A DNA stretch of 60,111 nucleotides. Source: a virus. Lineage: Duplodnaviria > Caudoviricetes. Shown piece after piece: positions 1,206 through 46,956 of the stretch. The notes beneath the pieces were generated by a model. The model worked only from the letters and a program-made list of their open reading frames with translations. It searched no databases and had not been told where the DNA came from. The translations under genes and the position numbers were made by a program. The DNA is taken from IMG/VR virus record IMGVR_UViG_3300031774_000010, positions 1-60,111 of that record. The stretch is one strand, 5' to 3'. Within the stretch, counting starts at the first letter, position 1. Each line of letters starts with the position of its first letter.

Positions 1206-2075
1206 ATGAATTGGCAAGATGCATTTAAGTTGGGAGGAAGTGACGCTGCTAACAGTCTTGCAAGTAGTTATTCACAATCTTCAGGTCTAGCGGACGCATT
1301 TAGCGGAAATAAATGGGTTAGTGATCTTGCTCGTAATTATCCGGCACCTTCATCAACGGTTCCTGCTGATTTTTTTACATACAGTCCAGATAAAGATTCA
1401 GGTATTGATTGGAATACAATGATTGCTAATCCTGATGTTTTAGAGGGTGTAGGTGATAGTTATCCAGATCTTTTTAAAAACGGAGTAGATTTTTTAAAAG
1501 ACTTTACTAGTGATGAAAAAAGTCAATTTTTTGATGCACAAAAAGCTGCTGCTGGTTTACCTACTGATAAATCTCGTGAATCTTGGTACCAACAAGTTTC
1601 TCCGTCAGTAGGAATATACGGAGGATTAGGATCAGGATCAGGATATGGATATGGGTCAGTAGGGTCAGGAGCAGCTGCAATACAGGCAGCGAACACTCTA
1701 GGTGCTATGTATCCTCAAATGAGTCAGAAGAGTCCTGGTCTTAAAGATTATATTGGAGCGGGTATGAGAATGGCAGGAGATGAACTTAAATATAAGGCTT
1801 TGTATGCAATTAATCCAGTACTAGGAGCTGTTGAGCAGTTCTACCCTGGTGGTGCTACAGAAGCATTTAAAGATGTTGGTAAAGTTACTGGTGCTGTAGG
1901 TAACAAGATATCTAAGGGAATTGGCAGTGTTGTTAAACCTGTTCAAGATTTCCTTGATGGTATTTTCTGTGACGAACGATTAAAAGTAGACATTGCACCA
2001 TTAGAAAGCACAGAAGTTAACGACGAGTTAGCACAAATGGCATTCTTTGTGAAAGGTCTCCGTGAGTGCTCTTAA
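1206..2075 (+). CDS. putative virion protein ending in the N-terminal part of an S74 intramolecular chaperone motif
   Basis: C-terminal CDERLKVDIAPLE resembles the SDxRxKxxI auto-cleavage motif. Confidence 0.55.
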   Translation: MNWQDAFKLGGSDAANSLASSYSQSSGLADAFSGNKWVSDLARNYPAPSSTVPADFFTYSPDKDSGIDWNTMIANPDVLEGVGDSYPDLFKNGVDFLKDFTSDEKSQFFDAQKAAAGLPTDKSRESWYQQVSPSVGIYGGLGSGSGYGYGSVGSGAAAIQAANTLGAMYPQMSQKSPGLKDYIGAGMRMAGDELKYKALYAINPVLGAVEQFYPGGATEAFKDVGKVTGAVGNKISKGIGSVVKPVQDFLDGIFCDERLKVDIAPLESTEVNDELAQMAFFVKGLRECS

Positions 2076-2289
2076 GAAGTTAAGACAACTGGAGCCAATC
2101 CAGTTTAGATATAAAGAGGAGTTAGATCCGACGCAACCATTACGTGCTGGTTTCTCTGCTCAACAGGTACAAAAAGTAATACCTGAAGCAGTAAAAGAAG
2201 TTGATGGAATATTGATGTTGGATGGGAATGTTTTAAAGAATTATCTCCGCATGGCGAGAGAAGAGTTATTAGCTGAATCTTCTAAGTAG
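2062..2289 (+). CDS. stand-alone C-terminal part of peptidase S74 / intramolecular chaperone domain
   Basis: ALKKLRQLEPIQFRYK...GFSAQQVQKVIPEAV matches the S74 core; GTG start preceded by AAAGGT. Confidence 0.7.
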   Translation: MSALKKLRQLEPIQFRYKEELDPTQPLRAGFSAQQVQKVIPEAVKEVDGILMLDGNVLKNYLRMAREELLAESSK

Positions 2290-3142: not shown

Positions 3143-3871
3143 ATGACCACCCTAAATGAGTTTAAACAGTTAGTTGATGCCTATCGGTTAGGTGATTTAA
3201 AAGGACTTGACACTGCCTATAATCCGAATCCTACTGCAAATGGAAGAAACACAGATCTTAAAGATCCTTTGGTATATACGGATACTGAGTTAGAAGAGGA
3301 ACCTCTTCCAGACGATTTAGTATATGTAACTCGTGGTAAAGGACTTGATAAGAAAATATATGTAGGTAATAAAGATAGGGAAATGAATTTTCTTAAAAGA
3401 GCGACATTAGGATTATTAGATGCATTTGTAGATAATACAAAAGTAGGGGATAAAGTATTTAGGGTTGATAACGATAGGCAAAATTTAATACCAAAAGATG
3501 AATATAACGCGAAAAGGTTAGCAGAACGCCGTCGTAAAGCAGATATAAGTGGAGATGCAGTCGCAAGTCCTGAGCAAACTCGTAAACATATTGAAAGTCA
3601 AAGGGTACGAGATGCTTATCTTTTTGAACAATTAAATAAATTAAATGACTATGAATTAGAACGTTGGAAGAATGCTTATCCTCAGTATGCAAAAATGATA
3701 AATGATGAAATATTTAAGAGAAGAATGCAAATTGAATATAATAGTCCTAGTGAACTACAAAATAGACTAACCGCAGGTTTTGATACTCGTAATGCTGCTA
3801 AAGTTGCTGATGCTGAAGCATATCTAAAAATAGCGCAAGGTATGAAAACTGGTCTTGAGCGTTTTGTATAG
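3143..3871 (+). CDS. hypothetical protein
   Basis: 242-aa ORF in tight operon spacing. Confidence 0.7.
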   Translation: MTTLNEFKQLVDAYRLGDLKGLDTAYNPNPTANGRNTDLKDPLVYTDTELEEEPLPDDLVYVTRGKGLDKKIYVGNKDREMNFLKRATLGLLDAFVDNTKVGDKVFRVDNDRQNLIPKDEYNAKRLAERRRKADISGDAVASPEQTRKHIESQRVRDAYLFEQLNKLNDYELERWKNAYPQYAKMINDEIFKRRMQIEYNSPSELQNRLTAGFDTRNAAKVADAEAYLKIAQGMKTGLERFV

Positions 3872-3919
3872 CTGGTTAACAATTCACGTTCAGTAGAATA
3901 GGAAAAAATATTAGTAATT

Positions 3920-6070
3920 ATGAGTAACGACGTAAAGCAAGTAGGTACTCAATTTGCCAAGGATTATTTAAGTAGTGCTCAAAATAATGCTGTAGCTAAG
4001 TTAACAGCTGACGACGATGATACAGGAGGAGGTGCTTCAAATCTTACAAAGGTAAACGATCCTTCTTTGCAATCTCAAATTGCATTAATGGATATACAGA
4101 ATACTCAACAACAGTTAAATTTAGAAACTGCTGCTGAATTAGATCGTATTCAAAGAGAGTTCTACACTGATCAAGATATTAGAAGAGGTCAGTCAGAAGG
4201 AACTCAAAGTCGATTAGGGCAAATGATGGGGGGAGAGCAACAACGTTTAAGTGCAAGAGTTGCAGGAGAAGAACAAAGAAGAGGAACAGCTGAGACAGGT
4301 TTACAACAGCGTTTAGGTGCAAGAGTTGCAGGGGAAGAGCAACGTGCAGGTATTGAGACAACTGGAACACAACAACGTTTAGGAACAGCTGAAACAGGAT
4401 TCCAACAGCGGCTTGGAATGGGAGAGCAGGGGTTACAACAAAGAATGGGAATGGCAGAATCTGGATTACAACAACGGCTAGGAACTGCAGAAACTGGAAG
4501 ACAGCAAAGAATGGGAACTGCAGAAACTGGTTATCAACAACGTTTAGGACAAAGAGTCGCTGGACAAGAAAGAAGAGCTGATTTAGCAGAAACAGGTGCT
4601 CAGCAGAGGGCATCATCCAGAGTCACTGGTCAAGAGCAACGTGCTGGTATGGTTGAGTCTGGTTATCAACAACGTTTAGGACAAAGAGTTGGAGGCCAAG
4701 AAAGAAGGGCTGAATTAGCAGAGACAGGAGCACAAACCCGTGCTACTGAGCGAGTTAGAGGTGAGGAAGATAGAGGACGTATTGGAGCAACTGGTTTTGA
4801 GCAACGTCTCGGAACTGCAGAAACTGGTTTCCAACAACGTTTAGGAACAGCTGAATCAGGATTCCAGCAGAGACTGGGAATGAGAACAGCAGCAGAAGAA
4901 ACTCGTGGAACAGAAAGAGTTAGAGGTGAAGAGCAACGTGCAGGTATTACAACAACTGGATTACAACAGCGTCTTGGAACTGCAGAGACAGGCTCCCAAA
5001 CCCGTGCTACTGAGCGAGTCAGAGGTGAGGAAGATAGAGGACGTATTACAACAACTGGAGTACAACAACGGCTTGGAACTGCAGAAACTGGGTTACAACA
5101 ACGTTTAGGAACAGCTGAATCAGGACTTCAACAGAGATTGGGAATGAGAACTGGAGGAGAAGAACAACGAGCAACTCGATCTTTAGAACAAAGAATAGGT
5201 GGAGAAGAGCAACGTCTTGGTATGAGAGTAGGGGGAGAAGAGCAAAGAGCATCTCGTGCTTTAGAACAAAGAATCGGTGGAGAAGAACAACGTCTTGGTA
5301 TGAGAGTAGGGGGACAAGAAACCCGTGCTACTGAGAGAGTTAGAGGTCAAGTAGACATTGGGCGTATTGGCGCAACTGGATTACAACAGCGTCTTGGAAC
5401 TGCAGAAACTGGTTTCCAACAAAGAATGGGAATGAGAACAGCAGCAGAAGAAACTCGTGGAACAGAAAGAGTTAGAGGTGAAGAGCAACGTGCTGGTATC
5501 TCAACAACTGGATTACAACAACGTTTAGGAACAGCTGAATCAGGACTTCAACAGAGATTGGGAATGACAACTGGAGGAGAACAAACACGTGCTACAGAAA
5601 GAGTTAGAGGTCAAGAGCAACGTGCTGGTATCTCAACAACTGGATTACAACAGCGTCTTGGAACTGCAGAAACTGGTTTCCAACAAAGAATGGGAATGAG
5701 AACAGGAGGAGAACAAACACGTGCTACCGAACGAGTCAAAGGTCAAGTAGACATTGGGCGTATTGGAGCTACAGGTCTTCAACAACGTCTGGGAACTGCA
5801 GAAACTGGTTTTCAACAAAGAATGGGAATGCAAACGGGAGGACAAGAAACACGTGCTACTGAAAGGGTTAGAGGTCAAGAAGATAGAGGAAGAATTGCAG
5901 CTACTGGTTTAGAGCAACGTTTAGGACAAAGAGTTGGAGGTCAAGAGCAAAGAGCGACAAGAGAAACAGAAGGTCAGCAAATCAGGTCAACAGACTTGCA
6001 AAGAGAGATGTTCCGTCGCTATAAAGAAGCAAGAGATTATGGCCAAGCACAACGAGCTTACCGAGTATGA
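3920..6070 (+). CDS. 11-residue (hendecad) repeat protein, putative ejection tube or ruler
   Basis: About 54 tandem units such as GTAETGLQQRL and TERVRGEEQRA. Confidence 0.6.
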   Translation: MSNDVKQVGTQFAKDYLSSAQNNAVAKLTADDDDTGGGASNLTKVNDPSLQSQIALMDIQNTQQQLNLETAAELDRIQREFYTDQDIRRGQSEGTQSRLGQMMGGEQQRLSARVAGEEQRRGTAETGLQQRLGARVAGEEQRAGIETTGTQQRLGTAETGFQQRLGMGEQGLQQRMGMAESGLQQRLGTAETGRQQRMGTAETGYQQRLGQRVAGQERRADLAETGAQQRASSRVTGQEQRAGMVESGYQQRLGQRVGGQERRAELAETGAQTRATERVRGEEDRGRIGATGFEQRLGTAETGFQQRLGTAESGFQQRLGMRTAAEETRGTERVRGEEQRAGITTTGLQQRLGTAETGSQTRATERVRGEEDRGRITTTGVQQRLGTAETGLQQRLGTAESGLQQRLGMRTGGEEQRATRSLEQRIGGEEQRLGMRVGGEEQRASRALEQRIGGEEQRLGMRVGGQETRATERVRGQVDIGRIGATGLQQRLGTAETGFQQRMGMRTAAEETRGTERVRGEEQRAGISTTGLQQRLGTAESGLQQRLGMTTGGEQTRATERVRGQEQRAGISTTGLQQRLGTAETGFQQRMGMRTGGEQTRATERVKGQVDIGRIGATGLQQRLGTAETGFQQRMGMQTGGQETRATERVRGQEDRGRIAATGLEQRLGQRVGGQEQRATRETEGQQIRSTDLQREMFRRYKEARDYGQAQRAYRV
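4187..5990 (+). repeat. 33-nt-period coding tandem repeat with higher-order duplications
   Basis: Recurrent GGAACTGCAGAAACTGG / CAACAACGTTTAGG units at 33-nt multiples; two 45-nt variants near 5170-5295. Confidence 0.9.
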
Positions 6071-6552
6071 ACAAATGGATTAACGGACTAACTGATAAAG
6101 ACCGAGAATCCTTTTTAGCTTTTTGCAAACAAACAGCTTCTCCCATACAGATTTATCTCTACTCACGATTCCTTGGTTTTAAAGGAACAATTGTTGAGTG
6201 TGATGAATGGTCTAAGAAAAAATTTAAAAAACGTAATTTTAATATTCTATTAGAACAAGAAATAGATCATATGCAAGAAGATATTTCAAAGTTACGTCAA
6301 GCAATTGATATGGGTATGGTTAAACAAGATATGGGTACAGCACGTATTGCAATGCTTCAAAAAGAATTGAGAGGCTCTATAAAACAAATAGGCGATGAAA
6401 AAGTATTAATGGATAAACAAGGCTTGATTCTTGCTGGTGCAGACAGAGCATTACGTGAGATGTTAACTATTTTCCGTGATGATCCAATTGAAGGTCCCTT
6501 ACAAGAAGCGTCAATGGGAGTTTGGACAAAAATATTACAGGAAGAAAGTTAA
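6067..6552 (+). CDS. helical protein, possible terminase small subunit
   Basis: Directly upstream of terL, suitable size, coiled coil; positional inference only. Confidence 0.4.
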   Translation: MNKWINGLTDKDRESFLAFCKQTASPIQIYLYSRFLGFKGTIVECDEWSKKKFKKRNFNILLEQEIDHMQEDISKLRQAIDMGMVKQDMGTARIAMLQKELRGSIKQIGDEKVLMDKQGLILAGADRALREMLTIFRDDPIEGPLQEASMGVWTKILQEES

Positions 6553-6576: not shown

Positions 6577-8100
6577 ATGGCAGGAACAAGTATTTATAGT
6601 GTTTATCGACGAACTGCGAGAGCAGCCGCTAAACAACAAGTTGTCAAAAAAACTTCTAATATTGATGTAGAGCGAGCACGAGAAGATTTTGCATACTTTT
6701 GTGATGTTGTAGGAGATAAACCACCAGCCACTCACCATAAAGAATGGCATAAATATTTGTGTACTGGAAAGGATAGTGAATGTTTAGTAGGTATTGGTGG
6801 ACCCAATATTGATATCTTGGCACCTAGAGGAAGTGCTAAATCCACAATCCTTGGTTTATATACAGCTTGGACTGTTGGTATACATGCTCTTAATAAGCAA
6901 CCATTAAAGGTTTTATATATTTCTTACACTGTTGATGTAGCAAGACCTAAAAGTGCAGCCATAAAAAGAATTATTGAAGAAAGTAAAACATATCGTGAAA
7001 TTTTTCCCAGAGTGAAAATTGCTAAAGGTATTAATTCTAATGAGTATTGGAGTATTGATTGGAAGTTTGCTGGAATTAAATCTACTGGAGAAGAAGAGTT
7101 TACTGTTTGTTGTGCAGGCTTAAAAGGTGCTGTGACATCTAAACGTTCTCATCTTTGTATTATTGATGACGCTATCAAAAGTGCTGATGATATTAAAAAC
7201 AGAGATATTCGCCAAGCTATGCAGGATAACTGGAACTCAGTCATAGTTCCTACTATGTTTGAAGGAGGTAGAGCTATTTGTTTAGGAACTCGTTTCCGTC
7301 ATGATGATATTCATAACAGTACTTTTACTCCAGCAAATGATTGGGTTCAGATAGTCCAGTCTGCAATCACTGTTGATAAGGATGGTGAAGAAATTTCGTA
7401 TTGGCCAGATATGTGGTCTTTAGATTATTTACGAGATAGACGACGCCAAGCTCCAGTTGCTTTTAGTTTTCAGTATCAAAATCAAATAATACAGACAAGT
7501 GAGTTATCCCTTTCTCCAGACTTGGTTGTTAAAGGAGCTATAGCAACTCAGTTTGATGCTATGGGTATTGGAGTTGATCTATCAGCTGGTATAAGAGAGC
7601 AGAATGATTTTACTGCTTTTGTAATGGGTGGAAGGATAGGAAATAAGATTCATGTGATTGATTGTAAAAGATTGAGAATAATGGGGAATTTAGAAAAGTT
7701 AGAAGCATTAATGGAAATGTTAGATGAGTGGGGAGTTATTCATAAAGATGGAGATAATTACTTTCCTACAGGTAGTTCTATTCATGTTTGGTCTGAAGCT
7801 GTTGCATATCAGGCATCTTTAGAAGCTGACTTCAAACGTATCTGCTTAGGTGATCAAGGACTGTATAACGTTCTTTGGCATCCTGTTAAAGGATTTCGAG
7901 GAGACAAAGTTGCACGCTTTAGGGGCATTATGGGTTTATTTGAGCAAAGAAAGATTACTTTTAATAAGTATCGAAAGTTCACTGCATTAACAGATGAGAT
8001 TGTCAATTTCGGTGTTAGCTCCCATGATGATTGTGTTGATGCTTTAGTTTGGCTTTGTAATGGATTAATGACCAGAGGAAAACTAGAGTTAGAGTATTGA
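6577..8100 (+). CDS. terL: terminase large subunit
   Basis: Walker A APRGSAKS, Walker B CIIDD, GTR coupling motif, RNase H-like GVDLS and C-terminal HDDCVDA. Confidence 0.95.
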   Translation: MAGTSIYSVYRRTARAAAKQQVVKKTSNIDVERAREDFAYFCDVVGDKPPATHHKEWHKYLCTGKDSECLVGIGGPNIDILAPRGSAKSTILGLYTAWTVGIHALNKQPLKVLYISYTVDVARPKSAAIKRIIEESKTYREIFPRVKIAKGINSNEYWSIDWKFAGIKSTGEEEFTVCCAGLKGAVTSKRSHLCIIDDAIKSADDIKNRDIRQAMQDNWNSVIVPTMFEGGRAICLGTRFRHDDIHNSTFTPANDWVQIVQSAITVDKDGEEISYWPDMWSLDYLRDRRRQAPVAFSFQYQNQIIQTSELSLSPDLVVKGAIATQFDAMGIGVDLSAGIREQNDFTAFVMGGRIGNKIHVIDCKRLRIMGNLEKLEALMEMLDEWGVIHKDGDNYFPTGSSIHVWSEAVAYQASLEADFKRICLGDQGLYNVLWHPVKGFRGDKVARFRGIMGLFEQRKITFNKYRKFTALTDEIVNFGVSSHDDCVDALVWLCNGLMTRGKLELEY

Positions 8101-8330: not shown

Positions 8331-10607
8331 ATGAGCGATAGCAATACTAAATCCGCAATCGATTCTATCGTTAAGTCGGTTATCGAACGTGATGGTTCTG
8401 GTACAGCAGATACGATGCTGATCAACGCCCATTTATCTCAAATGAAGATGTTTGGGATAAGGCAAGGAGTTGAGTTCTTTCCACAACAAGATAATTTAGG
8501 TACTCAAAGATTTGATTTTATTCAACAGGTTATTAAATTTAATAAATTAGATGCACGGCTTGATTCAATTTGGGATAGATTTTTAGCTTATGGAAAAGGT
8601 TTATTTTATATAAGACCTACAAGAAAAACTTATCGTATCTATTGGTTTGATAAAGATTCATATAGGACTTATTACACACCAGAGGGTGACTTAGAAGAGG
8701 TAATTATTATTTATGGGTACAAAGTTCGTTCTAAAAAGGGATTTAAAGGAGCTGGTTTAAATACAGATAAGCGTTATATGCGTTTACGTATTACTGCAAC
8801 TGAGATTGAAGAGTTTCATAGTGAACAAGAAATAACTTTTGATCAAGAAAACGTTAGTTTTGCATCTCAGAACAAGAAAGTATTAGAAAACACTATGGAG
8901 TTTATTCCATGTGTTGAAGTATTTAACAATCCTGATGCTTTCGGAACGGATGGAGCTGGTGAATTTGAGTGGTTAGGTAATCAAATAATTGCTCATGATG
9001 AGATGGTTAAAAACATAAGGGCAAACTTATCGTTCTTTGGTAATCCAACTTTATTATCTTCTCGTCCTAAGCAAGACATTGTTGAAAGTAGTTCAGATAG
9101 TGAAGTACAAAGACCAAGTATTTCAAGTCAATCAGGTTTTCAATCTAATTTTGATTTATCAAGTTCGACGTTCAAGCAAGATCCAGTAACTAGAACGCAG
9201 CCAGGTTATATAGGTAAACCCGGTTCAGGTCTACGTGTTCCAAGAGTTATTGCTAATTTGGAGCCAGCAGATCGTGTTGGTTTTATTACACCTAATGCAG
9301 TTAGTACCGATCAGGCGAGGTATGCAGAACAACTACGTAGTGAGCTACGGTTGGCCTTAGGAGGCATAGATGACCTAAGTATTACAAATGTAACCGCAAC
9401 GGAGATTAAATCGGCATATGGACGTGTCAGTGCTACTGCAAAGAAGAAATGCTTACAACTGTATACTTATGGAATTTGTAAGGTTTTTGAATTAATACTT
9501 TTTCAAGAAGAACAAATATTTAGAAAGTCACTTGCTTTTGTTTCTAATATTAAATATCCAATAGTTCCTGAAGATTTAACTGATGAAAAAGCAGTTGAAA
9601 AGTATGAAAAAGGAAAGATGAAATATGAGATTAAATTACAGCAAGCAGTTGATTTATCATTAGAAACAGGAGAAATACCAGATGGTGTTGTAGGACTGGC
9701 ACCCGATGGAGATAGGACTATCCTATGGCGTTGGATGGGTCCTGTTTATGAAGACACACCTCAAGATAAATTAAACCAATCTATCTTCACAAGAAACCTC
9801 CAAGAATTAGGCGTTGATAGCATAGAAGCACTGAAGTACCTATTTCCTTCTAAAACTGACGACGAAATAGCAACGATGCTATCTGGTTATCCGTTTAGAA
9901 TTGTAGGAGAGGTACAAAGAGCTTTCTCAGCTTTCATTGATTTAGCTAATCAAGAAATGAGAACGCCACATCCGCAGCAACCGAATTTACCGATGGCTGC
10001 AGATCCGAGATTAGATCTCACTCCATTTTTATATAAAACACTAGAGCAACTCCAGAAGGAATTAACTTATGCAGGACGCTACCGTAGCGCCGACCCAATC
10101 GGCACCCCAAGTATCCCAGACCCAGCCGACCAGCTACGTGGCTCCAGCGGCTCAGGCACCAGTGGCTCAGGCACCAGTGGTGGGTACAGCTCCCCAATGG
10201 GTGGCAACATCCCAGCCAATGGCGGCACCAGTTCCACAAGCGCAAGCGCAGATGGGGATAGCGGCTCCACAATACAGCCCTACACCGTCAAGTTACCAGG
10301 AATATCAGGCACCCCAACAGCAGGAGAGTCCATACAAGGAAGCCTTCAACAAGGTGGTCGGGCTCCTGAGTTCACCAGTCCAGTTCCCGTTCCAGGGTCA
10401 ACAGTCGACTCAGACTCCAGCAGCAGGCCAGGTCAACTACGCTTCCCAACAGACAACCCCATACAGCAACGCGGTTCAGCCGACCTCTATGCCTGGGACC
10501 GTGAGCAACCAGGATTACTCCAACGCCTCTTCCCAAACATCTACGGGGATAACAGCGGAGCAACTAGCGGCAAGCGGAGTAAGCGACGCAAGTCTTCAAG
10601 TAATTGA
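8331..10607 (+). CDS. portal protein with long low-complexity C-terminal extension
   Basis: Position between terL and scaffold/MCP; ~580-aa folded core with portal-like helical and WGPV-type segments. Confidence 0.75.
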   Translation: MSDSNTKSAIDSIVKSVIERDGSGTADTMLINAHLSQMKMFGIRQGVEFFPQQDNLGTQRFDFIQQVIKFNKLDARLDSIWDRFLAYGKGLFYIRPTRKTYRIYWFDKDSYRTYYTPEGDLEEVIIIYGYKVRSKKGFKGAGLNTDKRYMRLRITATEIEEFHSEQEITFDQENVSFASQNKKVLENTMEFIPCVEVFNNPDAFGTDGAGEFEWLGNQIIAHDEMVKNIRANLSFFGNPTLLSSRPKQDIVESSSDSEVQRPSISSQSGFQSNFDLSSSTFKQDPVTRTQPGYIGKPGSGLRVPRVIANLEPADRVGFITPNAVSTDQARYAEQLRSELRLALGGIDDLSITNVTATEIKSAYGRVSATAKKKCLQLYTYGICKVFELILFQEEQIFRKSLAFVSNIKYPIVPEDLTDEKAVEKYEKGKMKYEIKLQQAVDLSLETGEIPDGVVGLAPDGDRTILWRWMGPVYEDTPQDKLNQSIFTRNLQELGVDSIEALKYLFPSKTDDEIATMLSGYPFRIVGEVQRAFSAFIDLANQEMRTPHPQQPNLPMAADPRLDLTPFLYKTLEQLQKELTYAGRYRSADPIGTPSIPDPADQLRGSSGSGTSGSGTSGGYSSPMGGNIPANGGTSSTSASADGDSGSTIQPYTVKLPGISGTPTAGESIQGSLQQGGRAPEFTSPVPVPGSTVDSDSSSRPGQLRFPTDNPIQQRGSADLYAWDREQPGLLQRLFPNIYGDNSGATSGKRSKRRKSSSN

Positions 10608-11055
10608 TCATTTCGGTGCTGACGCTCCAGCAATTCTTAATGACTATGCTTGTAAGGTAGAAGATTCACTTATTAAAACTGATAGTCAGTTAAAGCAAGG
10701 TGTAGGTTTACTAAAACAGTTAAATGCTGAGCATAAGAAATATACAAAAATTCTTACTGATCCTAATGTTTTAGCAGACTATACAACAAAGTTCTTTGGT
10801 CCTAATGGTCCTCATCCTGTAACTCCTGCAGCACCTGCTCAAAGGCAACAAGCAGCGCCAACAGCTCAGAGAGTAGCTCCTCAACGTCCTGAGATGCCTA
10901 TTCCTCCACAGCCTCAAGCTGCCGCTTCTCCAAGTGATTTCTGGAATAACTTCGGTTCTGCTGCTGATAGAGATCCTCAAAATGCATGGAGGTATCTAAG
11001 TGCTGCCCAGCAAAATCCTGAGGTCTTCCGTCAGAAGCTCCTTGTAATGGAATAA
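10069..11055 (+). CDS. putative capsid scaffolding protein
   Basis: RBS GAAGGA upstream; Q/P/A-rich disordered N-half, helical middle; precedes MCP; followed by a terminator. Confidence 0.55.
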   Translation: MQDATVAPTQSAPQVSQTQPTSYVAPAAQAPVAQAPVVGTAPQWVATSQPMAAPVPQAQAQMGIAAPQYSPTPSSYQEYQAPQQQESPYKEAFNKVVGLLSSPVQFPFQGQQSTQTPAAGQVNYASQQTTPYSNAVQPTSMPGTVSNQDYSNASSQTSTGITAEQLAASGVSDASLQVIDHFGADAPAILNDYACKVEDSLIKTDSQLKQGVGLLKQLNAEHKKYTKILTDPNVLADYTTKFFGPNGPHPVTPAAPAQRQQAAPTAQRVAPQRPEMPIPPQPQAAASPSDFWNNFGSAADRDPQNAWRYLSAAQQNPEVFRQKLLVME

Positions 11056-12022: not shown

Positions 12023-13171
12023 ATGTTTATAGATAACGATTTCCCGAAACTTCTCGGAGCGGAATTGTATCGTCCCCATCCAGCTTACATCGTGGAAATG
12101 GCTTCCGAGCCAGTAGTAGTACATGATTTTACTAAGCAGCCTGGTCAGACTGTACAGCTAGACCGCTACAGATTCTTCGGCAATCCTGGAACAAAGACTA
12201 GCCGTGAGCGTACTCAGGATCAAACCATAGGTACAGCTAACAGCAGATCTATTGTCAAGGACAAGGTTCTTGTATCTCTTCGTGAGTACACAGGCCCAGC
12301 CGATCCAAACAACACAAATCTTCCTAGCACATTCAAGATTGCTAGAGAGACCTTGATGACAGCACAGCGTTTGCTGCTTGATACTGGGAACCTTAATATG
12401 TTCCACCAGTCAATCGGTAGTTTAACTCTGTTAGATGACTACCGTCGTTGGAGAGATAGAGTCTTCATTGATGAACTCTTTAAGAGTGAGTCAAGAGGCC
12501 AATCTTCTGATTCACAAGGTGGATACTACTATCCAAACGGAAAAGCAAAAACAAACTCAACTACTCTTACTGCATACACAGCTACAGAATATGCTTCTGA
12601 GCGCTTTAAGTTCAACGTAAAAACTGACCTTTTAGAAGTTGTAAAGAGTTTACGTAAGCGTCACGTACCTGTCTTTGAAGACGGATACTACAGATGTATC
12701 GCTGACCCTTCATTCATGAAGGATCTACGTGCAGACCAAGGCTTCCGTGAAGTTGCTCGTTACCCTGGAATGCCTGGACAAGGTTCTCCTTTGATGGGTG
12801 CTGGACAACCTAACCAAGCTATCTACGCTGGTGGTCAATTTGGCCAAGCCCAGTTTGTAGGTGGAGAGCCAGTCATGCCAAGCGGTTTCGTGTTCGAGGG
12901 AGTAAGATTCTTTGAGTCTACAAACTTCCCTGCTAAAACTATTACTGCTGATATCGGTGATGGTAATGGCGCAGGTTCCAAAACTACTCCTGCTGGATTG
13001 TTCTTCGGTCCTCAGGCTATCGGTGTAGGTATTGGTGGTCCAAACGCTCAAGTTCTAATTAATAACAACGACGACTTCAGCAGATTTATTATTCTGATCT
13101 GGCAGTTGTACGCTGGTTTTGCGAACTTGAACAAGGACTTCATCACTACAGCCTTCACAGTGGCTGAGTAA
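12023..13171 (+). CDS. major capsid protein
   Basis: 382 aa; strong codon bias (TTC/AAC/ATC); HK97-like features (YYRCIADP, GFVFEGVRFFES); position after portal/scaffold. Confidence 0.85.
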   Translation: MFIDNDFPKLLGAELYRPHPAYIVEMASEPVVVHDFTKQPGQTVQLDRYRFFGNPGTKTSRERTQDQTIGTANSRSIVKDKVLVSLREYTGPADPNNTNLPSTFKIARETLMTAQRLLLDTGNLNMFHQSIGSLTLLDDYRRWRDRVFIDELFKSESRGQSSDSQGGYYYPNGKAKTNSTTLTAYTATEYASERFKFNVKTDLLEVVKSLRKRHVPVFEDGYYRCIADPSFMKDLRADQGFREVARYPGMPGQGSPLMGAGQPNQAIYAGGQFGQAQFVGGEPVMPSGFVFEGVRFFESTNFPAKTITADIGDGNGAGSKTTPAGLFFGPQAIGVGIGGPNAQVLINNNDDFSRFIILIWQLYAGFANLNKDFITTAFTVAE

Positions 13172-13184
13172 GGAGGTATAACTA

Positions 13185-14006
13185 ATGGCAACTTACAAAT
13201 CTTCCGCTGGAGCTATTCTTCAGCCAGGTAACCAGATCAACCGTCTGTCCTCATACAACGATGAAGGTGTATTTGGATGGCCTGGGGTTGAAGCATTTGA
13301 ACTTATCGGTTATGCAAAGGTATCTAACCTTGCAGCTGCTAAAGCTTCATACAAGAGCTTTGACTTAACAGTTCCTTCACCAGATCGCCGTGTAGGTGAT
13401 CGTGTACGTAATGACCGTACAAGCCTCGTAGTACAAGCTGACGCAGCGCGTCCTGCATATGTCTATGGTGCTTCTATTTGCGTTGCACAAGATGTACCAT
13501 CTGCTGCACAGGACAGAGCAGGTTTTCCTGCAGCCCCTGTAACAGCTGATCTACTTGGTACCAACACTGAGGTTCTTCTTCTAGGACCTGACAATGGTGG
13601 TAATCCATATGGTATTCCTGCAGCTCCTATTAATGGATTGAAAGCAGCTTCTGCAAGTCTTTCTATTGGTGCTTCTGGAATTGCTCAAGGTACATCTGAC
13701 ACAACAGATGGAAACCTACCTTTCCTCAGAGTGATCGGTACATCATATACGCAAGCTGATTTTGCGGATGCAATGATGTATCAGACAACTTCTGATCTTA
13801 CTTTCAAGGTTTACAACGTAAACGCTACTACTAACACAACACCAACTGGTGATGGTGTTTATATTAGCCAAGACGATTCTGACGCTGGTCGCGAAGCATA
13901 CATCGTATGTCGCGTGAACTATCTACGTCCTGCTGCTGCTGTATCTTGGAATGATGTTCAAGGCTTTATTGACTTTGCATCACAAGTAGGTGGAAACGAC
14001 GAGTAA
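13185..14006 (+). CDS. putative capsid decoration / abundant structural protein
   Basis: Perfect RBS AAGGAGGT, co-transcribed with MCP, followed by a terminator. Confidence 0.6.
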   Translation: MATYKSSAGAILQPGNQINRLSSYNDEGVFGWPGVEAFELIGYAKVSNLAAAKASYKSFDLTVPSPDRRVGDRVRNDRTSLVVQADAARPAYVYGASICVAQDVPSAAQDRAGFPAAPVTADLLGTNTEVLLLGPDNGGNPYGIPAAPINGLKAASASLSIGASGIAQGTSDTTDGNLPFLRVIGTSYTQADFADAMMYQTTSDLTFKVYNVNATTNTTPTGDGVYISQDDSDAGREAYIVCRVNYLRPAAAVSWNDVQGFIDFASQVGGNDE

Positions 14007-30359: not shown

Positions 30360-30908
30360 ATGTATAGGAAGAGCAACATGAATTGGACAGCTCTCGGATT
30401 AGGTGCCTTTCTTGGAGTCTCAAATATTGGCTTGATGGGCTCTTTAATAAGCAAGGGCAGCTTACCTGTTGTTGATTTTCCAGTAGGTAGTTATACATCG
30501 TATGAGATGGAAGCTACCAAAGATGGTTACAAGATTAGATATAACGCCAATGATCCAAAAGTAATGATAAAAACAGAGAATGTTGTTAAACCTGCTAGTG
30601 GATTATTTAACAAAGGTGTTACAACTGTTGATTTGTATGAAGAATATACGATGAATGGGAAAGTTCATTTAGAGGGTGGTGACAACGCTTCTAAGCTTAC
30701 AGCTAAAGAAATAGCGTGTATTAAGGCAGAAGGAGCTGGTGGCTCTACAGGAGGTGTTATAGGAGCTTCTGTAGGTGCTCAAGCAGCGCCTGCACTTTCA
30801 AATATTCCTATAATCGGATGGGTTGCTAGTGGATGGGCGACAATGTTTGGGCAAAAAACAGGGGCTAATCTTGGTGGAGATATAGCCAAAGCGATAGAAG
30901 GCTGTTAA
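30360..30908 (+). CDS. membrane protein with glycine zipper
   Basis: N-terminal TM segment; GGxxGxxxGAxxG...IPIIGW. Confidence 0.6.
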   Translation: MYRKSNMNWTALGLGAFLGVSNIGLMGSLISKGSLPVVDFPVGSYTSYEMEATKDGYKIRYNANDPKVMIKTENVVKPASGLFNKGVTTVDLYEEYTMNGKVHLEGGDNASKLTAKEIACIKAEGAGGSTGGVIGASVGAQAAPALSNIPIIGWVASGWATMFGQKTGANLGGDIAKAIEGC

Positions 30909-32068
30909 TGCCTATATTTCATCTTTCTGAAGCGGGTTTAGAGTTTATCCGTCTTTTTGAGGGTGCATATTTATCATCCGAAATAGTCAGTAGTTTAGAA
31001 AAAGAAGTTTCAGAATTAGTAACGGCTCCTATAAATCAAAATCAATTTGATGCTTTATTCTCATTTGCGTCAAATATGGGAATTGAACTTCTTTCTAATT
31101 CAAAATTACTAAAACGTATAAATGAGCTAGAAAACCCTTCTGAGGTTGCTGCAGAAGAATTGCATAAATGGAACAAAGAAGGTAGTAAGGTATTTCAAGG
31201 GCTTTCTAGGAGGCGTTCAGCAGAGTTAGAGCTGTTTTGCCATAAACCACCTGAATTTAAATGGGGTTGGGCATCTATAACATCTAAATGTCACACATAT
31301 TTAAAAAAGCGTCCTGTACCTATTGGTGAACTTTCCTCTGATGAAACAGCAAAAATTTGTTCAAAACGTTTAATTCGACGTTGTCGTGTTATTGAAAGAA
31401 CTGAAGGCCATACTTATTTAGAACTTGGCTTTGGTTTAGGAAAATGGTGGGTAGTAGATAAACATTGGGAAGGTTTGAAAACAGAAGTACGTATTTATCC
31501 ATATACAAAAACTAATGATCTTTTACATTTAAGAGATTTTCCATATATGCATAGGCCAGAAGAAGAAAGTAACGGATGGGGGATTAGTCAATGTTGTGCT
31601 GTTGCCATGTGTTTAAAATACTTTGATGCCCCTGCTATTAATTGTATTAATGACTATATCAATATCGTTAATAAGTACGGAAGATTAAATTCTCGTCGAA
31701 ATCACATAAAAGCAATGAATACTTTTGGTTTTTCAGCAACGTTTAATCATGTAACTGCTTCTGAAGACATAAAAGATAATATTAAACAAGGTTTACCAGT
31801 CATAGGAATTATTGCAGGACGTAGTATTCGCCAAGTAGGAGGTATGGCTCACAGTGTTGTTATTACTGGATACGATGACACTAATTGGTTAGTTCAAGAC
31901 CCTTTTGGTGAATTAGATTTAACACTAGGTCGATACAAAGACAGGGGTGCTGATGCTGGTAGAAATGTTTTTTACAATCAAGAGTTGTTGAATAAACGCC
32001 TTTCTGTAGGAGGAGGTGTAGATGGTTGGTGTTGGTTAAATTTTCGTAAATATGTATTTAAAGATTAG
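30908..32068 (+). CDS. endolysin-like fusion: degenerate GH24 lysozyme plus C39-like peptidase
   Basis: INQNQFDALFSF..N.G and GL.RRR.AE.ELF; C39 triad context QCCAVAM / HSVVITGYD / QDP. Confidence 0.8.
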   Translation: MPIFHLSEAGLEFIRLFEGAYLSSEIVSSLEKEVSELVTAPINQNQFDALFSFASNMGIELLSNSKLLKRINELENPSEVAAEELHKWNKEGSKVFQGLSRRRSAELELFCHKPPEFKWGWASITSKCHTYLKKRPVPIGELSSDETAKICSKRLIRRCRVIERTEGHTYLELGFGLGKWWVVDKHWEGLKTEVRIYPYTKTNDLLHLRDFPYMHRPEEESNGWGISQCCAVAMCLKYFDAPAINCINDYINIVNKYGRLNSRRNHIKAMNTFGFSATFNHVTASEDIKDNIKQGLPVIGIIAGRSIRQVGGMAHSVVITGYDDTNWLVQDPFGELDLTLGRYKDRGADAGRNVFYNQELLNKRLSVGGGVDGWCWLNFRKYVFKD

Positions 32069-32591: not shown

Positions 32592-33002
32592 GTGTATCAT
32601 TGTGAGCAAGATCTTCTAGCTAATTTAGTTGTTTTATCGTCAAAAAATGCTCGAAAAGAATTTAGAAATCATATTTTTGCAGCTTGGGAATGGAAATGTG
32701 CTTACTGTGATAATAAATTAGATGATTTAAGTGCAACGATTGATCACATAGTTCCTAAATTTAAAGGGGGACATAACGTTAAATCCAATATGTGCTGTTG
32801 TTGTTCTTCTTGTAATAGACAAAAAGGTTCTACTTTTTTAGAAGAATGGTATACACCTAGTTTTGCTTTTTATTGCAAAAAAAGATTTGTTAAAATAAAG
32901 AATTGGATGGAGCAAGAACCAAGCTCTATTAAACTATTATTAGCAGATAAGGCACACCCTTACATAGCAAATGACTTCTACATCGGATGGGTACCAAGTT
33001 GA
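32592..33002 (+). CDS. HNH endonuclease
   Basis: CAYC...TIDHIVPKFKGG...N...C..CN..KG. Confidence 0.9.
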   Translation: MYHCEQDLLANLVVLSSKNARKEFRNHIFAAWEWKCAYCDNKLDDLSATIDHIVPKFKGGHNVKSNMCCCCSSCNRQKGSTFLEEWYTPSFAFYCKKRFVKIKNWMEQEPSSIKLLLADKAHPYIANDFYIGWVPS

Positions 33003-33584: not shown

Positions 33585-33968
33585 ATGGCTACTCGCACTA
33601 TTGAAGGCACTATAGACACATTTAGTGTCGATACAGGCTCTGAAGTTACTTATCTTGGTGCTACGTCATCAGGAAATCCAGGAGAGGCTATTAGAGCTTT
33701 TCGTGTTAACCCAGGTGGGACTGGGAACATTATTGTAAAACTTGATAAAACCAGTGGTGTTAATACTATGGAAGTATTTCAAGAAGATGCCTATGGAGGA
33801 AGCAGTGCTGCCACTGGATATAAAGTTTTTACAAATATAGCTAAAGACGGTAAAGGCAAAGGCGCTGTTGGTACAGCTGTTACTAATGCTGCAAAGAATT
33901 ACGTTGTGTTGCTTACTTTAGATGGTTATTCTGAAGTCAGTTACAACGGAAGCGTTGACGTCCCATAA
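33585..33968 (+). CDS. beta-rich hypothetical protein, possibly structural
   Basis: 127-aa Gly/Thr-rich ORF. Confidence 0.6.
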   Translation: MATRTIEGTIDTFSVDTGSEVTYLGATSSGNPGEAIRAFRVNPGGTGNIIVKLDKTSGVNTMEVFQEDAYGGSSAATGYKVFTNIAKDGKGKGAVGTAVTNAAKNYVVLLTLDGYSEVSYNGSVDVP

Positions 33969-34701
33969 GAAGGAAAAAGTAAAACAAACTTGGAAACAGC
34001 ATCCTTTTCTTACTTGGAAAGGAATAGAATTAATAAAAAGTTATTATCCTGCTCGTACTCATATTGGTATGGGTAGGTATGCCACGTATAAGGATTATGG
34101 AGAAGATATTTGGCGTATTGGGTATGGAAGTAAGAAATTAGGCAAAAGGTGGCTAGGAGCCAATGATGTAGCTACTGAAGAAGAAATTGATCAGCAATTA
34201 ATAGAAGATTTAAAGGAATTTTCTGATCTTGTTTCTAAGTACATCTTTGCCCCTTTAAATACAAATAGAAAGGCTGCTTTACTAAGTTTTGCTTTCAGTA
34301 TTGGTATTAGCTCTTTGAAAACCTGTCGTCTTTTAAATTTAATTAATAATTTTGCTAGTAAAACTGAATTAATTAGAGAATGGAGTCCTTATATCAATCG
34401 GTTGTGGTTTTCAGGTGGAGATCTGCTGGTAGCTCAACGTCGTATGGAATTAGATACATATCTGTCCCCTGACAAGACAATTCCAACGTTTGTTCCTCAT
34501 CACTGTCATTTAAAGAAATGTTTATTGAATCTCCCTGAGACTTATACTGGGGCTCCCAATCAAGTGAAAGCCATTGAATATCTTGAGAAAAAGTTACTTC
34601 AGTGGGATTCTTCTGGTGAGGTGTTACGACGATTTTTTCGTTATTGGTCTGAGACGCCACGTGGTCTAGGATCTCCCCAGCGGCGAAAGGGTCTCGACTA
34701 A
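33922..34701 (+). CDS. GH24 lysozyme-like protein with atypical active site
   Basis: GIELIK...YKD....WRIGYG, LNTNRKAALLSFAFSIG, L...RR.E...YL. Confidence 0.75.
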   Translation: MVILKSVTTEALTSHKKEKVKQTWKQHPFLTWKGIELIKSYYPARTHIGMGRYATYKDYGEDIWRIGYGSKKLGKRWLGANDVATEEEIDQQLIEDLKEFSDLVSKYIFAPLNTNRKAALLSFAFSIGISSLKTCRLLNLINNFASKTELIREWSPYINRLWFSGGDLLVAQRRMELDTYLSPDKTIPTFVPHHCHLKKCLLNLPETYTGAPNQVKAIEYLEKKLLQWDSSGEVLRRFFRYWSETPRGLGSPQRRKGLD

Positions 34702-37137: not shown

Positions 37138-38367
37138 ATGGCTACTGAAGATAATTCTAGAATAGGTGCTACTGTCGTTTATGATTCTCCACATGCTCTC
37201 GATGCTGCAAGGAGATACAAAGAACAGATAGCTGGTCAATTAGATTATTTAAGAAAAGGTCGTCCTTCTTCTCCTGCCGAACAAAAACTTGGTTCAATAG
37301 ATACTAAATTTTTAGCAGCAACTTTAGGTAAGGGTTCTCTTCCTCAAAATTATGGTACTTCTTTACCATCTGGAACTACTACATCTAGTGATTGGTTAGG
37401 TAATTTTTATGCAGAAAACAATATTGGAGGTCCTGGAGGTAATCTAGATACAAGAGCAAGAAATTACTGGGAAAACTCAGCAGCAGATAAAGGTATATAT
37501 GAGACTAAAAAAATTATTGAAGGTACTGCTAAAAATGAAGGAACATGGGGTACACGTACTCCTGTGTCTGGGGGTATTAAGACTGATCCCTTTTTAAAAA
37601 GGTCTGGTGGAGATTATCTAGGTTGGCATCGGAATAACCCAGTCAATATGAGTGGTGCGTTAGATGATGATTCATGGGTTAAAGGCGCATATCAATCTTT
37701 ATTAGGTAGAGAAGCTGATGATGCTGGTTTAGCCCACTGGAAAGGAGCTTTAGCTAGTGGTCAAAGTAGAGATGATGTTGTAGCAAATTTTAGAAAACAA
37801 CCTGAATATAGAGACAAATTTATTGGCGAAGCTTATAGAAATTTATTAGGTCGAGATGCGGATGTAGGAGGTAATGATTATTGGAGTAAAGCAATGGAAG
37901 GAGGTCAATCTGAAGATTCTGTAATTGCCAATATAAAAAGAAGTGATGAGTTTGGTAGACAACAGCAAAATTCAATGCGTGATGCAGTTTCAACAAAAAA
38001 TAATCTGGATTTAATGAATGAGGCTTATAACGAGCAAATATCTTCATTAGGTAGACGGAGGCAAGAAGCACAAGATGCTGTTCAAAAACAATATGGAACT
38101 ACACCAGATTATTCTCCTTTATTAACTACAGATCCAACTATTTACACTCAAGATCCAGAAGCATCACAATTAGCCTCAATTAATTATTTAGCAAGTCAAG
38201 ATCCTTCTAAAGGTTCTCCAACTATTTGGGGACAAGCATTAAGAGATGCCAGTGCTAAGGCAATAGGAAGTATTGATATTGAAGGTCTTGTTTCAGGTTT
38301 TTTTGATGCAAGAAAAGCTAATAAGAATGCTCAACAATCTTTAGATAACTATGTAAATTATTTTTAA
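37138..38367 (+). CDS. DUF4214 repeat-containing protein
   Basis: Two AY..LLGR.AD..G..(H/Y)W...G.S...V.AN....E repeats. Confidence 0.75.
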   Translation: MATEDNSRIGATVVYDSPHALDAARRYKEQIAGQLDYLRKGRPSSPAEQKLGSIDTKFLAATLGKGSLPQNYGTSLPSGTTTSSDWLGNFYAENNIGGPGGNLDTRARNYWENSAADKGIYETKKIIEGTAKNEGTWGTRTPVSGGIKTDPFLKRSGGDYLGWHRNNPVNMSGALDDDSWVKGAYQSLLGREADDAGLAHWKGALASGQSRDDVVANFRKQPEYRDKFIGEAYRNLLGRDADVGGNDYWSKAMEGGQSEDSVIANIKRSDEFGRQQQNSMRDAVSTKNNLDLMNEAYNEQISSLGRRRQEAQDAVQKQYGTTPDYSPLLTTDPTIYTQDPEASQLASINYLASQDPSKGSPTIWGQALRDASAKAIGSIDIEGLVSGFFDARKANKNAQQSLDNYVNYF

Positions 38368-46593: not shown

Positions 46594-46956
46594 TCAGAAC
46601 TTGTACTTAGCTCCGATTTTTGTTCCATAAAGGTTGTCATCTTCTTGTGACAATAGTGAAAATTCACCATAAACACCAAGTTTTTCAGTTGCAGAAATGT
46701 CACCGCCAATCTTTCCAGATAAACGTGTTTCTCCGTCGCCGCCTTCAGGAGCGATGATTGCAGGACCGCCTTGTACATAGAAACCATAAGTTTCGTTGCC
46801 GCCTTCATAACCAATATGGATATCAGTTACAGATCCTTCATAGTCAGTACCTGTGAAACCAGAGTTAGCTTCAACATTTACATATGTGCCAGCGAAAGCA
46901 GCAGGAGCAGCTACAGAGGCAGTTGTTGCTGCAAGAGCAATAAGAGTTTTGATCAT
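46594..46956 (-). CDS. small outer-membrane beta-barrel (porin-like) protein
   Basis: Signal peptide, alternating beta strands, C-terminal GAKYKF signature. Confidence 0.75.
   Translation of the reverse strand: MIKTLIALAATTASVAAPAAFAGTYVNVEANSGFTGTDYEGSVTDIHIGYEGGNETYGFYVQGGPAIIAPEGGDGETRLSGKIGGDISATEKLGVYGEFSLLSQEDDNLYGTKIGAKYKF

Follow-up and report, generated by a model that had tools for sequence, protein, structure and literature searches.

Short-tailed phages such as T7 and the P22-like phages need ejected proteins to bridge the host envelope, and the known ejection proteins (T7 gp14, gp15 and gp16, P22 gp7, gp20 and gp16, and Sf6 gp12) are helical proteins that, on leaving the capsid, lengthen the tail so that it crosses the envelope; we know of none with a quantised tandem-repeat rod. 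T4 fibritin and P22 gp26 are heptad-based parallel trimers with one hydrophobic core, the shaft of which tolerates changes of length, and tandem 11-mers that form 11/3 helices rich in Gly, Thr and Ala are known from apolipoproteins, alpha-synuclein, group 3 LEA proteins and perilipin 4, whose function scales with repeat number. The pilot protein H of phiX174, thought to act in DNA delivery, carries a hydrophobic membrane-inserting segment. The available parts of the published accounts describe a decameric channel formed by Sf6 gp12 (PMC4755594) and, for residues 151-271 of H, a decameric tube (PDB 4JPP) 170 Å long and 22-25 Å wide, in the lumen of which 18 of 23 positions are N, Q or R and the 121 residues of which comprise 3 hendecads, a transition and 11 heptads (PMC7354561). 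Here we describe REP, a repeat protein gene in a 60,111-nucleotide stretch of viral DNA (Duplodnaviria; Caudoviricetes; IMG/VR record IMGVR_UViG_3300031774_000010), referred to in its full length as the window. No known member of its gene family, which is uncharacterised and conserved in the examined marine cyanophage loci related to Synechococcus phage S-EIV1, is more expanded than REP. The REP product is tentatively read, as a whole, as a self-associating hendecad rod that is present in the virion and belongs to the apparatus with which a short-tailed phage delivers its DNA.

The window is a linear virus record, about 70% complete, and encodes a recognisable large terminase (TerL), major head protein, primase and DNA polymerase as well as recognisable tail-fibre or spike proteins. 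When 50,697 phage records were searched with its portal-like protein, the counterpart in Synechococcus phage S-EIVl was the sole match, at 51% identity. An uncultured marine cyanophage lineage with S-EIV1 as its closest relative has been described, and in the available part of that description only TerL, the portal, the major capsid protein (MCP) and presumed tail proteins are recognised (10.1101/325100). The wider group has a single isolate, S-EIV1, which is named as a short-tailed phage, second-hand, in the introduction of another paper (PMC7156551). The particle and the infection mechanism of these cyanophages are almost unstudied, and REP marks an unannotated conserved family with hundreds of members. 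REP has no match in Pfam (0 families at E<=0.01), PHROG or NCBIfam, and its upstream neighbours and an orthologue are likewise without a family; PHROG gave no match for any of the 15 members of our family alignment A1 either, and no relation to known ejection protein families. Searches of PDB sequences returned no chain for REP at E<=10 and none for the A1 profile at E<=1, Foldseek returned 0 matches of the REP model at E<=10, and the ESM Atlas yielded only unnamed viral clusters for it. A tblastn search of the same 50,697 phage records retrieved nothing for REP or for two other proteins, P0015 and P0009, with a low-complexity filter that may mask repeats, and nothing on the REP family was found in the literature on 11-residue-repeat or hendecad phage proteins and on S-EIV1 virion mass spectrometry.

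The array in REP is very regular. For residues 89-690, the autocorrelation of residue identity is 0.37, 0.33, 0.37, 0.51, 0.34 and 0.31 at lags 11, 22, 33, 44, 55 and 66, respectively, and 0.04-0.16 at every lag up to 70 that is not a multiple of 11. Together with cutting in register, which resolves residues 86-690 into 52 units of eleven residues and two of fifteen, it confirms the initial annotation, made from the letters of the window, which had counted about 54 units in an 11-residue register with two 15-residue units. The regular 11-mers cut in register number 51 (residues 97-415, 431-441 and 457-687), with one extra unit at residues 86-96, and three of their positions are near-invariant, namely R2, G9 and Q/E11, each found in 49 of the 51 units. 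Both unit types that had been named, G-x4-G-x-Q-Q-R-L and TERVRGEEQRA, are present, and the protein is indeed rich in Gln and Arg and nearly free of Pro (G113, R103, Q101, T78, E75, and a lone Pro at residue 48). With a net charge of +15, 16% Gly, 11% Thr and a mean hydrophobicity of about 0.04, REP lacks any hydrophobic segment, the maximum 19-residue Kyte-Doolittle mean being -0.03. An opposite-strand open reading frame (ORF) of 145 aa, rich in Leu, Phe and Val, lies inside the array (4179-4616, minus strand) and is most likely a shadow of the repeats, not a gene.

At the DNA level, Tandem Repeats Finder detects periods of 33, 66, 78 and 132 nt, the best 132-nt blocks are 85-89% identical, and 7 such pairs reach at least 85%. 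The block duplications proposed initially are thus real, whereas their recent origin is unsupported in mutational terms, because synonymous divergence (dS) among the 44-aa super-repeats (7 blocks, 21 pairs) spans 0.25-2.4. The ratio of nonsynonymous to synonymous divergence (dN/dS) is 0.10-0.58 in 21 of 21 pairs; the array arose by block duplication, and the copies have since diverged under purifying selection. The four extra residues of a 15-mer amount to about one helical turn, which makes it a 15/4 unit through which, by coiled-coil geometry, the helix stays continuous. Both 15-mers lie within one 78-nt (26-aa) tandem duplication (5156-5320, 89% matches) and therefore probably go back to one 4-residue insertion that was copied later.

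Of the 138 matches to REP (E<=1e-3) in a search of 1.84 billion protein representatives, 36 reached E<=1e-10 and 4 reached E<=1e-30; most of the matches are 100-350 aa long. Locus counts given here refer to the best 80 of 351 IMG/VR loci encoding REP relatives (351 of 491 stretches retrieved, with patterns from the conserved C-terminal tail), and the architecture is described from the 21 phage-type sequences read, of 23 fetched. In most of them, a variable head is followed by a conserved helical segment (..Q.AL....QQ.LNME..AELDR.N.EFFT.QDIRR..), by G-x-E/Q-x-R 11-mers and by a tail (TDLQREMFRRYKE.RDY.QAQ..YR.). Across 960 units from 67 orthologues, R2 (92%), G9 (90%) and E/Q11 (92%) are conserved, and positions 3 (A/L), 7 (V) and 5 (I) are hydrophobic. 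Repeat number differs strongly among the relatives: the 75 complete orthologues are 205-486 aa long, with a median of 264 aa, and the window copy, at 716 aa, is the longest, while the longest other G-x-E/Q-x-R array among all matches, of about 456 residues, belongs to P0018, a protein with other ends. The distance from the DIRR motif to the C-terminal tail equals 109+11n residues in 67 of the 71 distinct sequences that have both motifs, compared with about 1 in 11 by chance; it ranges from 109 to 406, with a median of 153, and the exceptions are 198, 253, 257 and 260. In the window copy it is 601 residues, that is 109 + 44x11 + 8, the 8 coming from the two 15-mers. Since length varies by whole 11-residue units, every step is worth three helical turns exactly and leaves the conserved N-terminal segment and C-terminal tail in an unaltered rotational phase. 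This natural series from 10 to 54 units is a ready length series for probing the function of the rod. Identity to the window proteins across the loci is 80-98% for TerL, 88-100% for MCP and 75-96% for the 161-aa protein encoded next to REP, and only 35-69% for REP itself; as the capsid and terminase are near-identical across the REP length range, the rod cannot measure the capsid.

Head types vary among the orthologues. In the head cluster that includes 36 of 80 orthologues, examples (L042, L043) start with Met-Gly and a proline-rich stretch (MGxSxP..PPPP), and comparison of head type with the upstream gene gave no signal of co-variation, all upstream proteins falling into one single-linkage cluster. 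The same 11-mers are encoded at the same place, directly upstream of a 161-aa-like gene and TerL, by hendecad proteins of sister cyanophages (the P0002-P0017 type, ending ..RRSGSRFFG, and the 280-aa protein of the sister-lineage locus L083, 4468-5310, with other ends, ..SKFFG). These differ from REP in an unrelated N-terminal region, another C-terminal tail and 12-20 G-x-E/Q-x-R matches versus about 54 units in REP. Near the REP position, S-EIVl encodes a 292-aa protein that starts with MGGKKVSYTPPPP and is without hendecads. A contig of 41.6 kb from an uncultured Prochlorococcus single-cell assembly (CACASR010000014.1, L087) encodes a REP relative that is 37% identical in its best segment, and it may link the phage lineage to a Prochlorococcus host; two more REP matches are located on contigs of a Bacteroidetes metagenome-assembled genome, and these may be mis-binned phage contigs. 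P0009 derives from a Synechococcus elongatus genome, and a scan of genome contigs gave no relative. Long 11-periodic matches of another sort (P0090, P0123, P0052, P0115 and others) were set aside, with 0-6 G-x-E/Q-x-R motifs each; P0052 and P0070, as read, are proline-rich proteins of another kind.

Table 1. REP, its segments and the neighbouring genes, with positions in the window
Feature	Position	Strand	Description
289-aa protein and 75-aa ORF	1206..2289 (ORFs 1206-2075, 2062-2289)	+	Peptidase_S74 fibre/spike chaperone domain split over two frames
Gly/Ala-rich protein, 267 aa	2337..3140	+	Weakly hydrophobic glycine-zipper-like segments, maximum 19-residue Kyte-Doolittle 1.65; found in 61/80 loci
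Variable upstream neighbour, 242 aa	3143..3871	+	BLASTP 26-45% identity in 11/80 loci; related upstream ORF in 71/80 by single-linkage clustering
REP (repeat protein gene)	3920..6070	+	716 aa; orthologues in 80/80 related loci examined
Variable N-terminal head, aa 1-46	3920..4057	+	Short helix, then acidic/Gly linker; AlphaFold2 helix 3-30, pLDDT (predicted local distance difference test) <50 at 32-48
Conserved N-terminal helical segment, aa 47-96 (..SLQSQIALMDIQ..LN.E.AAELDR..REFYT.QDIRR..)	4058..4207	+	Conserved block in alignment A1; more hydrophobic
Hendecad array 1, aa 97-415	4208..5164	+	29 units of 11 residues
Irregular stretch, aa 416-456	5165..5287	+	15-mer (416-430), 11-mer (431-441), 15-mer (442-456); inside 78-nt tandem duplication
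Hendecad array 2, aa 457-687	5288..5980	+	21 units as 44-aa (132-nt) super-repeats; period 132, 4.7 copies
Conserved basic/aromatic C-terminal tail, aa 688-716 (..TDLQREMFRRYKEARDYGQAQRAYRV), and stop codon	5981..6070	+	F, R, R, Y, K, E nearly invariant in A1
161-aa gene	6067..6552	+	ATG and REP stop share a 4-nt overlap; candidate small terminase, from position alone
Large terminase (TerL)	6577..8100	+	phrog_38, E 1.6e-76; PF17289
Portal-like virion protein	8331..10607	+	phrog_20475, E 1.5e-211; phrog_64

A helical fold had been proposed from the sequence, and AlphaFold2 (AF2), run on the single REP sequence, predicts an almost entirely alpha-helical protein with helices at residues 48-340, 345-524, 529-568 and 573-715 (mean pLDDT 61.6; predicted template modelling score, pTM, 0.22). 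After the 46-residue head, REP is thus predicted to form one near-continuous alpha-helix of about 670 residues, the central 600 of which follow the 11/3 repeat. To probe self-association, we used alignment A1 to model the 290-aa orthologue from locus L003 (residues 45-290) in four copies, in three runs and in comparison with 3 controls. The interface score ipSAE of the four-copy model is 0.55 (median of three runs) versus 0.00 for the best control, which, as a prediction, supports self-association. Among proteins of solved structure, 20 of the 30 pairs of one chain and 1 of the 23 single chains attained this mark, counts that are a rough guide here because the model used four copies and our own alignment. 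At least 89% of the contacts are common to the runs, partner pLDDT is at least 76, and PDB sequence searches found no solved relative that the model could have remembered. In the pairs with the lowest error, residue i of one chain faces residues i+1 to i+5 of the other, which places the helices parallel and in register. Contact residues recur at the 4-3-4 spacing across residues 50-275 of the L003 orthologue, so that both the 11-residue periodicity and the 4-3-4 contacts of a hendecad coiled coil are found, in the sequence and in the model, respectively. As the contacts begin, with this spacing, at residue 50, in the conserved N-terminal segment, that segment is a possible assembly trigger.

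The modelled interface joins two different faces of the helix, with positions 1, 2, 5, 6, 8, 9 and 10 on one chain and positions 1, 3, 4, 6, 7, 8, 10 and 11 on the other. The 11/3 wheel places I5-G9-R2 at 33-98 degrees, A/L3-V7-E/Q11-G4 at 196-295 degrees and, between these two contact faces, a pair of polar arcs with many Q, R, T and E residues. Being complementary and about 180 degrees apart, the two faces would therefore be suited to open-ended side-by-side association, as in a sheet, a wide barrel or a large bundle; judged from the model and from conservation, a classical core of two to four helices appears to fit them less well. Given these predictions, a self-associating hendecad rod is a probable structure for REP, and the family provides a natural test case for the assembly of pure hendecad helices with polar cores.

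One of the closest described systems is phiX174 H, with which the initial annotation had compared REP. The facts on the H tube stand, and the comparison of hendecads holds in part, since the available text on H gives only 3 of them beside 11 heptads (PMC7354561). REP, like H, is helical (as predicted), self-associating (in the model), hendecad-bearing and rich in Gln and Arg; it differs from H in having about 54 hendecads in 600 residues versus the 3 described in the part of the H report that is available, in an invariant Gly in each unit and in the lack of any sequence match in the PDB searches, and it comes from a tailed double-stranded DNA (dsDNA) phage with a terminase and a portal, whereas H belongs to the Microviridae. 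No counterpart of the membrane-inserting segment of H is found in REP. Hence REP resembles H in chemistry and possibly in principle, and is not a member of the H family. The likeness to ejection proteins lies in neighbours with Gly-rich, weakly hydrophobic segments; unlike them, REP has another gene position and no PHROG or Pfam relation. With T4 fibritin and P22 gp26 it shares conserved ends joined by a parallel, in-register helical shaft (in REP, according to the model), and it departs from them in being hendecad-based, with a very polar ‘core’ and two contact faces. From the amphipathic 11-mer proteins it is set apart by a low hydrophobic moment, by the lack of a Pfam match and by its invariants, R, G and E/Q, as opposed to a Lys-flanked apolar face. 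Thus, REP is filed neither with the tape measures nor with the lipid-binding 11-mer proteins, and is classed as a phage coiled-coil rod distinguished by the purity of its hendecads, its invariants and its quantised length.

REP belongs to a late operon, just ahead of the packaging and head genes, and the gene order in the 80 loci is the Gly-rich 267-aa protein, the variable protein, REP, the 161-aa protein, TerL and the portal. The 161-aa gene is found in 79 of the 80 loci and TerL in 78, and the 4-nt overlap of the REP stop with the start of the 161-aa gene recurs in 67 of 79. The series of co-directional genes starts, in locus L015, at about 5.5 kb upstream of REP and follows a divergent gap. 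Two upstream genes of the window encode Gly/Ala-rich, weakly hydrophobic segments (maximum 19-residue hydropathy 1.32 and 1.65); by eye, a similar segment is seen in a 544-aa L015 protein, and the S-EIVl protein at L001:4073-4882 resembles the 267-aa protein (unaligned). From the late operon position, the Gly-zipper-like neighbours, the fibre-like protein bearing the S74 domain and the short-tailed isolate, REP is therefore read as a virion rod. We infer ‘virion-associated’ from the position of the gene, and the functional part of this reading, drawn from context, is somewhat doubtful. Within the infection apparatus, REP would serve as a rod associated with the virion, for instance a needle, a strut or a component of an ejection conduit. 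Its copies would lie parallel and in register, the Ile5-Gly9-Arg2 face of one helix meeting the Ala/Leu3-Val7-Glu/Gln11-Gly4 face of the next, and the conserved C-terminal tail would dock on a conserved part of the particle. Rod length would be free to vary because the rod is proposed to set neither capsid nor tail size. Such a rod in a DNA-delivery device, if real, would be relevant to the way in which short-tailed phages get through the Prochlorococcus and Synechococcus envelope.

Several observations weigh against a virion rod of the infection apparatus. The repeat region ranges from 109 to 601 residues, more than five-fold, which is unexpected for a device that spans a fixed envelope, and such a range among close relatives fits a fibre or a flexible, redundant component. 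Model podoviruses, to our knowledge, do not have their genes for ejection proteins upstream of the terminase. REP itself has no hydrophobic segment, and fold searches left the small-terminase identity of the 161-aa neighbour unconfirmed: its AF2 model is all-helical with a pLDDT of 79, the best Foldseek match, at E 1.9, is not significant, and the best VIA-align hit, with a Z of 9.1, is a generic helical hairpin below the level that is meaningful for helical models with this tool. The AF2 confidence for the window protein is modest, models readily place long helices side by side and only four copies were modelled, and the Gly- and Thr-rich composition with low hydrophobicity would also suit an intrinsically disordered protein. 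In the literature searched, we found no virion proteome, image or experiment for the REP lineage.

An external fibre or whisker, i.e. a trimeric or other parallel coiled-coil shaft protruding from the head, neck or tail, with a length that reflects adaptation to the host surface, is unlikely. T4 fibritin, the phi29 head fibre and the P22 tail needle provide parallels, tolerance of length changes is typical of fibres, and REP combines parallel, in-register association in the four-copy model with conserved end segments and a shaft of variable length, evolves fast (35-69% identity) beside TerL and MCP at 80-100%, and has a neighbour with the S74 fibre-chaperone domain. It has, however, no globular receptor-binding domain, the variable head being only about 46 residues long; the two modelled faces, about 180 degrees apart, differ from the single core stripe of a trimer, and the gene is far from the tail-fibre clusters of the window at 22-27 kb and 43-45 kb. 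The DNA tube proposed in the initial annotation, in which many REP helices would close into a hollow alpha-helical barrel lined with Gln, Arg and Thr that conducts DNA across the envelope in the manner of H, is improbable. In its boldest form, an outside chance, the faces would zip parallel helices into a length-adjustable, polar-lined dsDNA conduit of up to about 90 nm that crosses the thick picocyanobacterial envelope, the principle of the H tube having been invented independently and in purely hendecad form. Each face pairs a Gly with a long polar residue (G9 with R2, G4 with E/Q11), which suits a sheet or a wide barrel over a compact bundle, the other two arcs carry polar residues, with Q, R, T and E abundant, and the H tube, in the available account, includes hendecads and has its polar lumen (PMC7354561). 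Against this, the models went to four copies and gave no closed assembly, there is neither a sequence relation to H nor a hydrophobic membrane anchor, dsDNA would need a bore wider than that of the H tube, and rod length would range from about 16 to 90 nm among close relatives.

A non-virion, intracellular role, as an amphipathic coat of membranes or thylakoids, an assembly scaffold whose basic tail binds the coat protein or a packaging partner, is distinctly unlikely. The Gly/Thr/Ala-rich repeats recall the lipid-binding 11-mers of perilipin, synuclein and LEA proteins, the conserved basic/aromatic C-terminal tail is found beside a very conserved MCP, and the 4-nt overlap with the next gene would couple translation to packaging proteins. 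As for a coat, the 11/3 hydrophobic moment is 0.105 and 0.118 in the two arrays (0.13 as a mean per 33 residues), not above the shuffled maxima of 0.090+/-0.012 and 0.109+/-0.015, and such a low moment argues against a lipid-coating amphipathic helix; moreover, the hydrophobic positions fall on two opposite faces, and no Pfam match to the LEA, perilipin, synuclein or apolipoprotein families was found. As for a scaffold, the ORF at 10069-11055, between the portal and MCP genes, is a better-placed candidate. A tape measure or ruler, the other role suggested initially, in which REP length would set the tail or another dimension of the particle, is very improbable: a long helix with 11-residue periodicity is what some tape measures show, but the gene lies upstream of the terminase, outside the tail module, searches of the window matched no family of tape measures, sheaths or tubes (the sole hint being a weak major-tail match at E 8e-4), and REP of 205-716 aa occurs beside MCP 88-100% and TerL 80-98% identical. 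The listing of S-EIV1 as short-tailed, second-hand and in a source available in part (PMC7156551), also speaks against a ruler. An assembly artefact or junk, i.e. a mis-assembled array or a degenerating low-complexity gene, has a slight chance at most. No single independent contig spans the array and joints of 532-1339 nt are seen, with sides under 30 letters that make them unreliable; on the other side, the frame is open over 716 codons, dN/dS is below 1 between all block pairs, and the blocks are only 85-89% identical, so that short reads can resolve them.

Public sequencing data bear on the soundness of the array. Of the 24 runs listed, 7 hold at least half of the sampled words of 3600-6400, and one of the seven may be the source sample. 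Contigs from three other marine metagenome runs (X1, X2 and X3) yield exact pieces, with 0 other letters, that match unique stretches in the array and tile most of it (3600-4082, 4251-4556, 4660-4904, 4957-5122 and 5676-6018), and X1, X2 and X5 add 5118-5402; the unique stretches within the array are thus confirmed independently. As none of the pieces listed from public runs spans the full array, the full repeat count rests on one assembly. In X1 and X2, some contigs join across 532, 796, 942 or 1339 nt within 4286-5990, with flanks of 21-27 letters; these joints could stem from co-occurring alleles of lesser length or from shortcuts taken by the assembly graph from one repeat to another, and, being unreliable, they were not used as evidence, nor were some bins without cover in X3 and X5. 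RNA runs hold 0.07-0.13 of the sampled words.

Several features of the surrounding genes may be added. The Peptidase_S74 domain upstream of REP is split at 1944-2289, where the end of the 289-aa ORF gives a weak match to profile positions 1-24 (E 0.067) and the overlapping 75-aa ORF a match to positions 16-58 (E 1.7e-10); the same split is found in L015 (5372-6347), and it could reflect a programmed frameshift or two separate products. Downstream, the 328-aa ORF at 10069-11055, Gln/Ala/Pro-rich and then helical, starts about 540 nt inside the low-complexity 3' end of the portal-like ORF, in another frame, an overlap that is kept in L003 (5702-6751) and L083 (9622-10689); by position it is a candidate scaffold, and the end given for the portal gene is tentative. 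Farther away, phage-lysozyme domains are encoded in two ORFs flanking an HNH endonuclease ORF (30908-32068, 32592-33002 and 33922-34701), the first of which also has a C39-like peptidase domain, a 409-aa protein with DUF4214 repeats is encoded at 37138-38367 (plus strand), and a cyanophage outer-membrane-protein-like beta-barrel domain (PF24653, E 3.5e-43) at 46594-46956 (minus strand). In the sister lineage, L083 encodes at 12269-13354 a protein that, by its N-terminal sequence, is the psbA (D1) protein.

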